NCBI GenBank assembly: GCA_015665415.1 | Contig: JADFAE010000012.1 | Span: 56,584-120,583, forward strand | Source: Roseobacter sp. | Lineage (GTDB): Bacteria > Pseudomonadota > Alphaproteobacteria > Rhodobacterales > Rhodobacteraceae | DNA length: 64,000 nt | Direction of reading: 5' to 3' | Shown here: positions 13,447 to 34,826 of the stretch, piece after piece | How the letters are laid out: each line of letters opens with the position of its first letter | Position numbering within the stretch: position 1 is the first letter of the stretch | The notes under the pieces: model-generated | What the model saw: the letters and a program-made list of their open reading frames with translations, nothing else | Database searches by the model: none | Told to the model about the DNA's origin: nothing | Made by a program: the position numbers and the translations under genes

Positions 13447-13479
13447 AAAAACGGGAAGGCGCGTTGGCCTTCCCGTTTT
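13447..13479. terminator. Bidirectional terminator between DUF502 and bdhA
   Basis: AAAAACGGGAAGGC-N6-GCCTTCCCGTTTT. Confidence 0.85.
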
Positions 13480-13504: not shown

Positions 13505-14281
13505 TCAAAGTGCGGTCCAGCCACCGTCCACGCTGAGGGTGGTGCCAGTAATCTGGGCCGCCGCATCAGAGCAGAAAAACACAGTCGAGCCGCCCAGCTG
13601 TTCGACGGTGGCAAATTCGCGTGAGGGCTGACGCTCCAGCATTACCTTCTTGATCACATCTTCCCGGCTCATGTCGTATTTCTTCATGGTGTCGGGGATC
13701 TGCGCTTCGACCAGGGGAGTCAGTACATATCCCGGGCAGATGGCGTTGCAGGTGATGGGGTCTTCGGCGGTTTCCAGAGCGACAGTCTTGGTCAGGCCGA
13801 CAACCCCATGTTTGGCTGCCACATAGGCCGATTTGAACGGCGAAGCGGTCAGCCCATGGGCAGAGGCGATATTGACCACCCGGCCCCAGCCGGCAGCGCG
13901 CATCATCGGCACCGCCACCGCAGTGGTGTGAAAGGCTGAACTGAGGTTGATGGCAATAATGGCGTCCCAGCTTTCTGTTGGGAAATCCTCGACCGGCGAA
14001 ACATGTTGGATCCCGGCGTTGTTGACCAGAATATCACAGGCCCCGGCTTCCTTGATCAGGTCCCGGCATTCTTGGGCCTTGGACATGTCAGCTGCGAGAT
14101 AGCGGGCGGAGACGCCAAACTCCGTCGCGATCTGGGCCGCCAGTTCGTGATCCTGCGCCCGGTCGGTAAAGGAGTTCAGGACGACATCCGCCCCGGCGCG
14201 CGCCAATTCCCGCGCAATGCCAAGCCCGATACCTGAATTGGACCCGGTAATCACCGCCGTTTTCCCCTGGAGCGTCATCAT
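13505..14281 (-). CDS. bdhA: D-3-hydroxybutyrate dehydrogenase (SDR)
   Basis: TGSNSGIG, NNAGIQHV, SAHGL, YVAAKHG, ICPGYVLTPLV. Confidence 0.92.
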   Translation of the reverse strand: MMTLQGKTAVITGSNSGIGLGIARELARAGADVVLNSFTDRAQDHELAAQIATEFGVSARYLAADMSKAQECRDLIKEAGACDILVNNAGIQHVSPVEDFPTESWDAIIAINLSSAFHTTAVAVPMMRAAGWGRVVNIASAHGLTASPFKSAYVAAKHGVVGLTKTVALETAEDPITCNAICPGYVLTPLVEAQIPDTMKKYDMSREDVIKKVMLERQPSREFATVEQLGGSTVFFCSDAAAQITGTTLSVDGGWTAL

Positions 14282-14505
14282 GTATCCCTTTCCTATTCCG
14301 TCAAACAAGTTAAGCGACACTGTGCCATGCTGCAGGCGCAAAGGAAACGCGTAGGACTACGTAGAACGTCCCAACGCGATAGCGCTATCGTGAGACCAAT
14401 GGGGCGTCCTTCACCTGGCAGCCGCCTGTCTCGGGGCTGCCAATCGGATGGGGGCTTTCAGGGAGCGCAAGCAGTCTGCCGTGGTCTCATATGGAGACAG
14501 CCGCC

Positions 14506-14581
14506 AAAAAAAACGCCCGCACGAAGCGGGCGTAAAGTTATTGAGGCAGGTTTCATACAGGCAAGAAACCTATCGAGCAGT
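14506..14581 (-). ncRNA. Candidate small RNA (~76 nt) with two hairpins and a U8 intrinsic terminator
   Basis: Predicted sequence ACUGCUCGAUAGGUUUCUUGCCUGUAUGAAACCUGCCUCAAUAACUUUACGCCCGCUUCGUGCGGGCGUUUUUUUU; stems AGGUUUC/GAAACCU and ACGCCCGC/GCGGGCGU; sigma70-like promoter directly upstream; no ORF inside. Confidence 0.7.
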
Positions 14582-14587
14582 GATCTC

Positions 14588-14616
14588 TTTATAAGCAATT
14601 TGGAGCTTTCATCCAA
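14588..14616 (-). promoter_or_regulatory. sigma70-type promoter TTGGAT-N17-TATAAA
   Basis: -35 at 14611-14616, -10 at 14588-14593, 17-nt spacer; predicted +1 A at 14581. Confidence 0.65.
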
Positions 14617-14696
14617 GCTAAAAGTTTGTAATGACAGAGATGCACCCATGAGGCGTAGACCCAGGAAAACAAGGGTAGAGCGGGATTGTTGCCAAA

Positions 14697-16514
14697 GTGA
14701 AGCCAGATTTTTTCCAGAACTTGAAAGTTATAACTGCGGGAATCACGCTGTTTGGAGGCGTGCATTTTGCACAGGCAGAATCATCTCATGGCATAGCTAT
14801 GTATGGTGCCCCAGCTCTACCACCGGATTTTGTGTCTTTACCCTATGCCAACCCTCTGGCGCCCAAGGGCGGCAAAGTGGTCTTTGGCAACACCGGCGGT
14901 TTTGACACGCTCAATCCTTTTGCCCAGAAAGGAACCCCACCCTGGCAGCTCAGGTTCTGGGGATACGAGAGTCTCATGGGACGGTCCTGGGACGAAGCAT
15001 TCTCTCTTTACGGGCTCTTGGCCGAATCAATTGAAGTGCCCGAGGACCGATCCTGGGTCGAATTCACCCTCCGCAGGGAGGCACGATTCTCCGATGGCAG
15101 CCCTGTCACGGTCGAGGATGTGATCTGGTCCTATGAGACCCTGGGCACCAAAGGACACCTACGGTATCGCGGGTTCTGGAGCAAGGTCGATGAAATCCGA
15201 CAGACTGGGCCCCTTAGCTTGCGCATCACCTTTAATACCGCCGATCGCGAACTAGCCTTGATTGCGGGCATGCGGCCGATTTTGCAAAAGGCACAGTGGG
15301 AGGGCAAAGACTTTGCCGCCTCTGGCCTGTCCGAGGCCCCCATCGGCACCGGTGCCTATGTCGTCGAAGATTTTGAGCCCGAGCGACAGCTCACCCTGCG
15401 GCGCAATCCCGACTATTGGGGCAAGGATTTGCCGTTTCGGCGGGGCACCCAGAATTTTGATGAGATGCGGATCGACTTTTTTGGCGACCAGACCGTCCTG
15501 TTCGAGGCCTTCAAAGCCGGAGAGCTGACAACCTACCGCGAATTCAACGCTGAAAAATGGGCTAGCGCCTATGGGTTTGCCGCTGTTGTCGATGGCCGGA
15601 TTGTCAAAAGTGAAATCCCCCATCAGCGCCCCACTGGCATGACCGGCCTAGCCTTCAACACCCGGCGTGTGCCGCTGGATGACTGGCGCGTGCGCGAGGC
15701 CCTGCTGCTGGCTTTCAATTTCGAATTCATAAACGAGACCATCACTGGTGGTGTTCAGCCACGCATTCAGTCCTATTTTTCCAATTCAAATCTTGGACTG
15801 CGTCCGGGGCCTGCCACTGGACAGGTCGCGGCCTATCTCGCCCCCTATGCTGGCGCGTTGTTGCCGGGAACGCTGGAGGGCTATGCCCTGCCGCAAAGCG
15901 ATGGAACAAAACGCAATCGAAAGAACCTGCGTAAAGCCATGGCGCTACTGGAGGACGCTGGTTGGCACGTGCAGGATGGGGTCTTGCGCAACGCAAAAGG
16001 GCGTGCGCTGGATCTGACCGTCCTGCTGCGTCAGGGTGACGGCGAGATGAAGACCGTGGTGGAAATCTATGCCCGCGCGTTGGAACGGCTTGGCATCACT
16101 CTAACGCCGGAATTGGTGGACAATGCGCAATATGTCGGGCGTCAGAACGAGTTTGATTTCGATCTCACCCGGGTGCGGCGTGAATTGTCGCTGAGCCCGG
16201 GAAATGAGCAAAGACTGTATTGGGGGGCCGCAGGCGCTGGCCAGCCCGGCAGCCGCAATCTGATGGGAATTTCCTCTGCGGCGGTGGACGCGATGATAGA
16301 TCACATGCTCACGGTCGAGGAGCCAGAGGATTTTGTCGCCGCGACCCGGGCCCTCGACAGGTTGCTGACCGCAGGTCGCTATGTGATCCCGATCTGGAGT
16401 TTCGACAAGGGACGCATCGCCCATGCAAAAGAGCTGCACTTCCCGGACAAGCTACCGATCTATGGCGATCGCACTGGGTTCATGCCCGATGTTTGGTGGT
16501 ATCAGGCCGACTAG
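14697..16514 (+). CDS. Peptide ABC transporter substrate-binding protein, family 5 (YejA-like)
   Basis: HGIAMYG, YANPLAPKGG, FDTLNPF, YGLLAES, ARFSDG, RRNPDYWG; signal peptide. Confidence 0.92.
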   Translation: MKPDFFQNLKVITAGITLFGGVHFAQAESSHGIAMYGAPALPPDFVSLPYANPLAPKGGKVVFGNTGGFDTLNPFAQKGTPPWQLRFWGYESLMGRSWDEAFSLYGLLAESIEVPEDRSWVEFTLRREARFSDGSPVTVEDVIWSYETLGTKGHLRYRGFWSKVDEIRQTGPLSLRITFNTADRELALIAGMRPILQKAQWEGKDFAASGLSEAPIGTGAYVVEDFEPERQLTLRRNPDYWGKDLPFRRGTQNFDEMRIDFFGDQTVLFEAFKAGELTTYREFNAEKWASAYGFAAVVDGRIVKSEIPHQRPTGMTGLAFNTRRVPLDDWRVREALLLAFNFEFINETITGGVQPRIQSYFSNSNLGLRPGPATGQVAAYLAPYAGALLPGTLEGYALPQSDGTKRNRKNLRKAMALLEDAGWHVQDGVLRNAKGRALDLTVLLRQGDGEMKTVVEIYARALERLGITLTPELVDNAQYVGRQNEFDFDLTRVRRELSLSPGNEQRLYWGAAGAGQPGSRNLMGISSAAVDAMIDHMLTVEEPEDFVAATRALDRLLTAGRYVIPIWSFDKGRIAHAKELHFPDKLPIYGDRTGFMPDVWWYQAD

Positions 16515-16721
16515 CGTCAGGCTGAGGCGTGAAGCGGTTGAAATCAGTTTTTCAGGCGGCTACACGCCAATTTCGACATCTGTGTTGCACGGGTTCATCG
16601 GTATGAAAACCGGCGGAAACCTGCGTTTGCGCGCACCCTCAACACTCCTGCGTTCCATTTTTTCCCATTTTTGCTATAGTGGCCTGCACGAAAGGTCATT
16701 GTTTCGATAGGGGCACCAGTC

Positions 16722-16943
16722 ATGACGATCCCTCAAGCTTCGATGCGCTGGGACAGAATGTATCCACGCGCCAAACAGCGGTTCCCGCATTTGCGGTCCG
16801 AAAGCGTTCCCAGCCTGGCAGGGGATCGCGACGGCTTTGTCGCCTATCTCGCGCGCACCCATCACCTGACCCTGCGCGAGGCCCGCGAGGAGGTGGACGA
16901 TTTTCTCTTTACCGAAAGCCTGCATGCTGAGCTTGATACCTAA
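16722..16943 (+). CDS. Small hypothetical protein, CsbD/YjbJ-like helical pattern
   Basis: AGGGG RBS; GDRDGFVAYLARTHHLTLREAREEVDDF parallels the YjbJ segment GKRDQLVGKIQERYG...QAEKEV. Confidence 0.6.
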   Translation: MTIPQASMRWDRMYPRAKQRFPHLRSESVPSLAGDRDGFVAYLARTHHLTLREAREEVDDFLFTESLHAELDT

Positions 16944-17092
16944 GAGTGTTAGAGTTCCGGCTAATCCATTGGTGCTGAAATACAACTTCTCCTGTGAGAC
17001 ATCCTTCCACTGACCGCTGTCCACGGCCTTTGACCACAGCGTGCCATTGGTGTGTTGGAGTATTATCCGGACCGTGGTCCAAATGGAGCGTA

Positions 17093-17716
17093 TTACGCCA
17101 GCGAGGTCACCCAGAGAATGGTGGCATCTTCCGGGCTGGTCGAAATCACGTTATGCCCCATAGCGGCATCGTAATAGGCACTGTCGCCACGGCGCATTTC
17201 AACGGGTTCATAGAACTCGGTATAGAGTTTGACGACACCGGTCAGCACATAGAGAAACTCTTCGCCGTCGTGACGCACCCAACCATCGAATTCTTCCATC
17301 GATCGGGCACGAACCCGGGCCCGATACGGCAGCATCTGTTTGCGCCGCAGACCTTCGGCCAGCAATTCATGCTCATAGGTGGCAGTGGCCTGGGCTGAGC
17401 CCTCGTTCAGCTTGGTCACGGTCATGCGGCCATTGACCTGATCGCGCTGCGGCTGCGTAAACAGCTGCGGCACCGAGATCTGCAAACCAACAGCGAGTTT
17501 TTTCAACGCCTCATAAGTGGGCGACATCTGGCCGTTTTCGATTTTCGACAGGGTAGAGCGTGCCAGGCCAGCCTGATTTGCCGCATGTTCCAATGTCCAA
17601 TCCCGTGCCTTGCGCAATTCCCGCACGCGGGCACCAAGATCTAGTGGTTCGGCCTCGCCGTCGTCGCCATTGGCACGCGCGATGGTAATCAGGGATTTGG
17701 GGTCTGTTCCGGTCAT
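17093..17716 (-). CDS. XRE-family HTH plus cupin transcriptional regulator
   Basis: LGARVRELR...TLEHAANQAGLARSTLSKIENG; cupin HDGEEFLYVLTG...GDSAYY...H. Confidence 0.92.
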   Translation of the reverse strand: MTGTDPKSLITIARANGDDGEAEPLDLGARVRELRKARDWTLEHAANQAGLARSTLSKIENGQMSPTYEALKKLAVGLQISVPQLFTQPQRDQVNGRMTVTKLNEGSAQATATYEHELLAEGLRRKQMLPYRARVRARSMEEFDGWVRHDGEEFLYVLTGVVKLYTEFYEPVEMRRGDSAYYDAAMGHNVISTSPEDATILWVTSLA

Positions 17717-34590: not shown

Positions 34591-34826
34591 GAGGCGTCTT
34601 CACCCTCATAAAGGCTGATCGGCTGGGCCGGCATGATGGTGGAAATCGCGTGTTTATAGACCAGTTGTGACTGACCATCGCGACGCAAAAGCACACAGAA
34701 ATTGTCAAACCAGGTGATAACACCCTGCAGTTTGACCCCATTGATCAGGAAAATTGTTACTGGAACCTTGGTTTTGCGAACGTGATTGAGGAAGGCATCC
34801 TGCAAATTCTGTCTGTCCGAAGCCAT
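34587..34826 (-). CDS. hfq: RNA chaperone Hfq
   Basis: [26 protein letters not shown]. Confidence 0.98.

Follow-up and report, generated by a model that had tools for sequence, protein, structure and literature searches.

Our analysis of a 64,000-nucleotide stretch of Roseobacter sp. DNA (hereafter the window) points, with moderate confidence on our part, to an autonomous gene for a small RNA (sRNA) of about 76 nt, whose product would act in trans as a pairing regulator assisted by Hfq, with Hfq, the pairing and the targets all being predicted. An autonomous and hitherto unannotated sRNA gene with an architecture of the Hfq type had already been proposed in a first-pass annotation of this DNA, and the proposal was strengthened here by the conservation of promoter, transcript and terminator across the order Rhodobacterales, and by a pile-up of sequencing reads at the predicted 5' end in Paracoccus denitrificans.

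Reading of the sequence between positions 14100 and 15000 placed the unit on the minus strand, from 14627 to 14506, with a promoter, a start site, a hairpin, a linker and a terminator in succession (Table 1). The first-pass annotation had described TTGGAT-N17-TATAAA, a start near 14581, a 7-bp hairpin, a 14-nt linker and an 8-bp GC stem with a UUCGU loop and eight U, and each of these elements was located on the minus strand where it had placed them. The predicted fold of the 76-nt RNA corresponded exactly to this layout of hairpin, linker and terminator, with an energy of -25.4 kcal/mol (z = -4.8), and none of 200 shuffled sequences folded as well. The terminator was picked up by a consensus terminator scan. 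The promoter was not called by a consensus promoter scan, because TTGGAT shares no more than 3 of its 6 positions with TTGACA and the last base of the -10 box is A. With 5 terminator-like sites observed against 4.8 expected, and with the promoter uncalled, the view from a single sequence is therefore no better than chance, and the proof has to be comparative.

Table 1. Elements of the sRNA gene and of the adjoining spacer, with positions in the window.
Feature	Position	Strand	Basis
A/T-rich upstream element AAACTTT (-46 to -40)	14621-14627	-	Consensus AAAcTTT in 139 distinct upstream sequences
-35 box CTTGGA (-36 to -31); alternative register TTGGAT at 14616-14611	14612-14617	-	Sequence and conservation
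-10 box TATAAA (-12 to -7), 17-nt spacer from TTGGAT	14588-14593	-	Kept in place, spacer variable
sRNA transcript, 76 nt, A(+1) at 14581	14506-14581	-	R1 match, 103.9 bits; fold z = -4.8; reads of P. denitrificans sRNA 46
5' end ACUGCUCGAU, candidate seed 1	14572-14581	-	Unpaired in predicted fold; identity of 90% or more across 114 aligned sequences
Hairpin 1: 7-bp stem AGGUUUC/GAAACCU, 10-nt loop UUGCCUGUAU (candidate seed 2)	14548-14571	-	Stem invariant in 114 of 114 sequences
Linker GCCUCAAUAACUUU, 14 nt; CCUGCCUCAA part is candidate seed 3	14534-14547	-	Unpaired in predicted fold
Rho-independent terminator: 8-bp stem, UUCGU loop, U8 tail	14506-14533	-	Terminator scan and covariation
Terminator stem-loop ACGCCCGC-UUCGU-GCGGGCGU	14533-14513	-	Sequence
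U-tail: seven further U, a run of eight with the last U of the stem	14512-14506	-	Sequence
TGC-rich motif TTTGCGCCTGCAGCAT, between terminator and bdhA, outside the sRNA	14327-14343	-	Strict pattern match in 25 of 102 spacers

We compared the region from 14440 to 14700 with 40 relatives by BLAST. The comparison gave matches in 23 of 24 same-family genomes and in all 6 genomes of a second family of the order, and there was no match in 10 further families of the class. The match in the distant family ran over query positions 118-200, which is exactly the segment from +1 to the end of the terminator. A covariance model (R1) built from the sRNA alignment matched every one of 151 sampled Rhodobacterales genomes, covering 64 of 64 genera, with scores of 66-107 bits and mostly a single copy per genome. 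The window locus scored 103.9 bits; its sequence belongs to the seed alignment of R1, and independent support is therefore provided by the match of the 150 other genomes. Conservation across the Rhodobacterales, for which the first-pass annotation had suggested a BLAST comparison, was thus seen both in the BLAST matches and in the R1 count.

Two R1 matches each were found in six genomes (G075, G079, G081, G141, G155 and G178). In a class-level sample of 119 other alphaproteobacterial families, R1 returned nothing above 30 bits, and the best chance match in the genome of the window itself scored 26.9 bits. The top matches outside the order were rejected as homologues on inspection: one (L165) is a chance match inside an aminotransferase reading frame, and the third-best (L164, 29.1 bits) is an sRNA of the CCUCCCU type.

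A larger set was collected with an exact 25-base pattern, taking one genome per species, and this yielded at least 120 loci (L032-L151). Among the pattern matches listed, all but a few carry Rhodobacterales names, and they represent at least about 40 named genera, including Paracoccus, Sulfitobacter, Ruegeria, Leisingera, Yoonia, Roseovarius, Rhodovulum, Jannaschia and Amaricoccus. Since these loci were selected by an exact pattern, invariance inside that pattern proves nothing; the sets free of this bias are the BLAST comparison of the 40 relatives and the R1 count. The 11 nt upstream of the pattern lie outside it, and yet their identity across 114 aligned sequences was 90% or more. A 604-bp contig labelled Cellvibrionaceae (L136, JAOXRT010000096.1), from a gammaproteobacterial metagenome-assembled genome, also carried the complete sRNA and has most likely been mis-binned.

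In the alignment, the first ~41 nt (ACUGCUCGAUAGGUUUCUUGCCUGUAUGAAACCUGCCUCA) formed a nearly invariant block, and the intrinsic terminator that comes after it was variable. The core of the hairpin 1 loop, CUUGCCU, was kept in family f2 as well. Within the linker, UGCCUCA was invariant in the 114 sequences and AUAACUUU was variable, being the least conserved part. The terminator stem differed between lineages by paired substitutions (GCCCGC, CCUCCGG, GCUCCC). Compensatory changes affected 7 of the 8 terminator pairs (102 cells in 114 distinct sequences), a level that was reached by 0 of 500 shuffles, and 98.6-99.2% of the terminator cells were paired, as against 34-49% when the partners were slid. 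The stem of hairpin 1 never varies, and covariation therefore neither supports nor contradicts this element. We also considered a small open reading frame or coding RNA, which was rejected as the only AUG is replaced in family f2. A single variant among about 150 loci, from an uncultured Rhodobacter sp. (L146 1356-1433, OZ241336.1), has an insertion of ~30 nt between the 5' end ACUGCUCGAG and hairpin 1.

Conservation extended into the promoter. In 139 distinct upstream sequences, the consensus read AAAcTTT (-46 to -40), CTTGGa (-36 to -31), a 17-nt spacer and TATAaa (-12 to -7), with the boxes at a fixed distance from the ACUGCUC start. CTTGGA or CTTGGC was present in 105 of the 139, and the TTG of the -35 box and the TA-TA positions of the -10 box were held while the spacer, which contains a partly conserved attGc, drifted. 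Judged from these boxes, the promoter looks like a housekeeping (sigma-70-like) type with an A/T-rich upstream element. The AAACTTT element is possibly an UP element, or alternatively an element common to the promoter of the divergent SBP gene, either function being predicted from its sequence and position. This promoter architecture occurred a single time in the genome of the window, and hence no regulon can be read from a shared promoter.

Evidence of expression comes from a published survey of P. denitrificans PD1222, in which Gaimster et al. (2016; Front Microbiol 7:1806, PMC5107571, Supplementary Table 1) listed a candidate designated sRNA 46. This candidate lies on chromosome 1 at 912922-912944 (+), in the intergenic region between Pden_0931 and Pden_0932, and the 22 nt reported for it, CUGCUCGAUAGGUUUCUUGCCU, agree letter for letter with nt 2-23 of the window sRNA. 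Peak reads of 2088, 915 and 487 were recorded in three growth conditions, and a terminator was predicted at 912968-912988, 24 nt downstream (PMC5107571). sRNA 46 was one candidate among 167, outside the 16 confirmed by the authors, and was given no name, function or conservation analysis; it was published as a 22-nt candidate, and its full length, promoter and order-wide distribution are not described there (PMC5107571). Other Paracoccus species in our set carry the full sRNA gene between the SBP gene and bdhA. The sRNA 46 reads support the strand and the start site predicted for the window sRNA, and show that the 5' end is expressed in one species.

The gene upstream of the sRNA and divergent from it encodes a family-5 solute-binding protein (SBP_bac_5), and the gene downstream is the 3-hydroxybutyrate dehydrogenase gene bdhA (TIGR01963, 367.6 bits against a cut-off of 307). 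Of the flanking genes named in the first-pass annotation, bdhA was thereby confirmed; its description of the other as YejA-like is plausible, but no specific equivalog model matched this protein. At 134 of 142 loci the SBP gene adjoined the sRNA gene in divergent orientation, and at 4 more it was slightly farther away. Its start codon lies only ~116 nt from the sRNA +1, beyond the sRNA promoter, which requires a back-to-back arrangement of the two promoters. In the window (14697-17716) the SBP gene is apparently an orphan, with no ABC permease or ATPase gene after it, and the next recognisable gene encodes a regulator with an XRE-family HTH and a cupin domain, on the opposite strand at 17093-17716.

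The constancy of the SBP gene would also be expected if the conserved block served as a leader or operator of that gene, acting in the plus strand or as DNA, with no minus-strand RNA being made. The arms of a hairpin are mutually reverse-complementary, and the same stem could therefore form in a transcript of either strand. We regard this explanation as extremely improbable. The sRNA promoter lies between the block and the SBP start codon, and the block is therefore upstream of any plausible SBP promoter. Moreover, the orientation of the promoter boxes and of the U-tail is that of a minus-strand gene, the reads from P. denitrificans have the sense of the sRNA, and the terminator covaries as an RNA stem.

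A role in cis for bdhA deserved closer consideration. The sRNA could be derived from a leader or attenuator whose promoter drives bdhA by partial read-through, a possibility that the first-pass annotation had raised as its alternative reading. In 86 of 114 loci the next gene was bdhA, in the same orientation as the sRNA, and 6 more loci had an insertion between the two; the spacer is short (38-329 nt, median 114). There is also a precedent in the same order, namely UpsM of R. sphaeroides, which arises from the 5' UTR of mraZ, lies upstream of this same-strand gene with a promoter and a terminator of its own, is conserved family-wide (PMC8266604, PMC5089854), and whose read-through feeds the downstream mraZ (PMC8266604). 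UpsM differs in its length of 206 nt, its locus and its sequence, and the gene downstream of the window sRNA, in contrast, is not constant and apparently has an operator of its own.

On the other hand, the 48 nt upstream of the terminator are invariant while the terminator arms change in sequence between lineages, because of which no anti-terminator pairing can be conserved, and the 8-bp GC stem with U8 constitutes a strong terminator. The sRNA-bdhA spacer is not conserved even within the genus. In six loci (L016, L020, L053, L074, L115 and L138) the downstream gene is convergent, and the sRNA is unchanged. A riboswitch or attenuator of bdhA was rejected on these grounds, and the broader reading, in which the main role of the RNA would be in cis through read-through, appears quite unlikely to us, although a degree of read-through, as from UpsM into mraZ, may occur.

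The spacer itself often carries a TGC-rich motif, TTTGCRNNTGCAGCAT, which was found in 25 of 102 spacers by a strict pattern and in looser forms in more. The motif recurs in many species in either orientation, and two inverted copies (CTGCAGTGCAGCA and TGCTGCACTGCAG) lie upstream of the phasin gene phaP of the same genome (G000:C4, ~188.6 kb). It is likely, judging from this pattern, to be the operator of bdhA's own promoter, and its operator-like character was a further point against attenuation. The motif resembles the TGC-rich operators of PhaR, the regulator of polyhydroxybutyrate (PHB); this likeness suggests that bdhA has a regulated promoter of its own, and would place bdhA in the PHB regulon. 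At the other end of bdhA, a 13-bp hairpin with T-runs on both sides (13448-13479) separates it from the convergent DUF502 gene and has the look of a terminator that works in both directions.

We return to the reading of the RNA as a trans-acting regulator. The layout usual for Hfq-dependent trans-acting sRNAs, in which an A/U-rich single strand precedes a rho-independent terminator with six or more U in its tail, is present, with the U8 tail and an A/U-rich single strand, AAUAACUUUA, just upstream of the terminator. The A/U-rich part of the linker is likely to be a site for Hfq or RNase E, as predicted from its composition and position, and an hfq gene (PF17209, 115.6 bits) is located in the window at 34617-34805 on the minus strand, ~20 kb from the sRNA gene. 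The first-pass annotation had considered the whole linker as a possible seed; its CCUGCCUCAA portion is indeed conserved, but AUAACUUU is the least conserved part of the RNA's single-stranded linker, and conservation points instead to three candidate seed regions, namely nt 1-10, the loop and CCUGCCUCAA.

The RNA is transcribed from its own sigma-70-like promoter and ends at the strong intrinsic terminator. In the mechanism that we propose, it would pair with several mRNAs through as many as three exposed and almost unchanging regions, namely ACUGCUCGAU at the 5' end, CUUGCCUGU in the loop and CCUGCCUCAA in the linker, and the CCUC of CCUGCCUCAA could mask ribosome-binding sites of the GAGG type. 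The A/U-rich stretch together with the terminator U-tail would form the Hfq-binding module. A multiplicity of targets would explain why ~41 nt are frozen.

We searched for such targets in several ways. Complementarity of the sRNA to the SBP start region was the same as that of shuffled sequences (-8.8 versus -8.2, -9.8 versus -9.6 and -9.4 versus -8.8 kcal/mol), and no complementary site was present in the start regions of phaP and phaC. For bdhA, the loop seed scored -12.4 versus -11.0 in shuffles, and this was due to Gly-Lys codons (GGCAAGAC) that are absent from the window's own bdhA. A scan of the window's genome gave 352 perfect 10-mers, with ~340 estimated for chance, and unremarkable energy ranks. 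We then took 1165 ortholog pairs from this genome and from the 2.37-Mb main contig of a member of the most distant family (G025:C4), and scored the start regions of both members, set by crude start-codon calls, for pairing with the three exposed regions. The best joint scores in this low-power screen of 1165 pairs were those of the permutation null, with 14 co-located matches versus 9.5 +/- 3.1 expected. The top match proved to be a spurious antisense open reading frame, a site assigned to rpsK was really in the coding sequence of rpsM, and dapB, which was the sole clean candidate target, was rejected since its site was not conserved in 30 orthologous start regions. With two genomes and crude start-codon calls the power was low, and pairing targets are therefore not excluded.

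The invariance of hairpin 1 is a counter-point to pairing, as stem and loop are both unchanging, which is unusual for a pairing sRNA, and this could instead mean recognition by a protein. The main rival to our reading is a protein-binding RNA, which would be a decoy or cofactor, with hairpin 1 and its flanks forming the recognition site of a conserved protein. The stem, the loop and both flanks are invariant across the order, beyond the usual need of pairing seeds, UGCCU is repeated in the loop of hairpin 1 and in the linker, and the two-genome screen yielded no conserved mRNA target. However, neither GGA nor another known protein-binding motif is present, in size and in its layout of promoter, open seed and terminator the RNA corresponds to pairing sRNAs, and the target screens were of low power. 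We consider a protein-binding RNA unlikely, and retain the pairing regulator as the preferred interpretation.

A more far-reaching version may be entertained tentatively, although we think it rather less than probable, in which the RNA would be a master riboregulator of the Rhodobacterales, marine roseobacters, Paracoccus and Rhodobacter among them, as universal within this order as 6S RNA or tmRNA, and would serve either as the three-seed hub of a conserved regulon or as the ligand of an RNA-binding protein. Its fixed place between the SBP gene and bdhA would suggest that such a regulon concerns, perhaps, carbon storage or transport. Considering its presence in all sampled genomes of the order, the ~41 frozen nt and its own conserved promoter, the sRNA is probably important for fitness. 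To the Rhodobacterales belong the roseobacters, which rank with the most abundant heterotrophs of the sea, as well as model organisms in Rhodobacter, Paracoccus, Ruegeria, Phaeobacter and Dinoroseobacter. Being short, single-copy and sharply delimited, the gene can be deleted or pulse-expressed in several tractable strains, and with a covariance model its annotation could be extended to thousands of genomes and metagenome bins.

Finally, we compared the sRNA with known families. Rfam 15 gave no match at the gathering score anywhere in the 64-kb window. The best sub-threshold matches of the sRNA were to BjrC1505 (RF02356; 25.1 bits, gathering 50) and to suhB/MmgR (alpha-r8, RF00519; 23.8 bits, gathering 41), the scores coming mostly from the terminator, and most stems were mismatched in the BjrC1505 alignment. 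The linker, CCUGCCUCAAUAACUUU, lacks the anti-Shine-Dalgarno motif UUUCCUCCCU, which is absent between the hairpins. The first-pass annotation had noted the missing CCUCC(C) motif and had assigned the RNA to no known family, and both statements are borne out by these results.

Could the RNA nevertheless be a divergent member of the MmgR/suhB or BjrC1505 families? It is similar to them in size (~77 nt), and shares with them a 5' hairpin, an exposed C/U-rich linker, ACUU and a terminator; it gives its best sub-threshold Rfam matches to them; and the CCUCCCU-type sRNA that R1 detected outside the order (L164) is of that type. MmgR reportedly controls PHB granules, and the window sRNA gene adjoins bdhA, a gene of the PHB cycle. 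Against this, the scores are far below gathering and equal to those of chance loci in the same genome, where the window locus ranked only fourth for suhB. Its linker reads CCUGCCUC as compared with CCUCCC in MmgR/suhB, and the start regions of the PHB genes phaP and phaC are devoid of complementarity. A better candidate exists elsewhere in the genome, at G000:C15:39367-39441 (L152 1501-1575), where a hairpin, UUUCCUCCCUGUCAGACU and a terminator with a U-run give an MmgR/suhB-like locus that scores 35.7 bits (gathering 41) and has the UUUCCUCCCU motif. Membership in either family was rejected for these reasons, and as an explanation it is already largely refuted and very improbable.

Published primers and probes for StsR, SorX, SorY, PcrZ, PcrX and CcsR1 had no match to the window sRNA. 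StsR (RSs0827) of R. sphaeroides is comparable in its ~72 nt, its conservation in the Rhodobacteraceae with synteny kept, its 5' seed and its terminator. It differs in beginning with GCCGTTCTACCTTCACTGTC and ending with GTCAGGGCGCTTTTTTTTT (as given by the primers), in its RpoHI/HII promoter and in its ACUU seed, and the two RNAs have no relation in sequence. A full-text literature search with the sRNA sequence in either strand retrieved nothing relevant, and supplements on R. pomeroyi contained no match to the sRNA. R. sphaeroides must carry the window sRNA gene, and a validated R. sphaeroides sRNA, 'RSs1386' (Berghoff 2009), is named in a paper on R. capsulatus (PMC5546546).

The enterobacterial sRNAs Spot 42 and GcvB are unrelated to the window sRNA in sequence and phylogeny, and serve as an analogy only. 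Both have an extended 5' portion that hardly varies and offers several exposed seeds, and both have many targets; by this analogy they could illustrate how ~41 nt might become frozen. Relative to Rfam, and to the sRNAs that we compared by sequence, primers or probes, the window sRNA is not a new kind of molecule, and represents a new sRNA family of a known kind.
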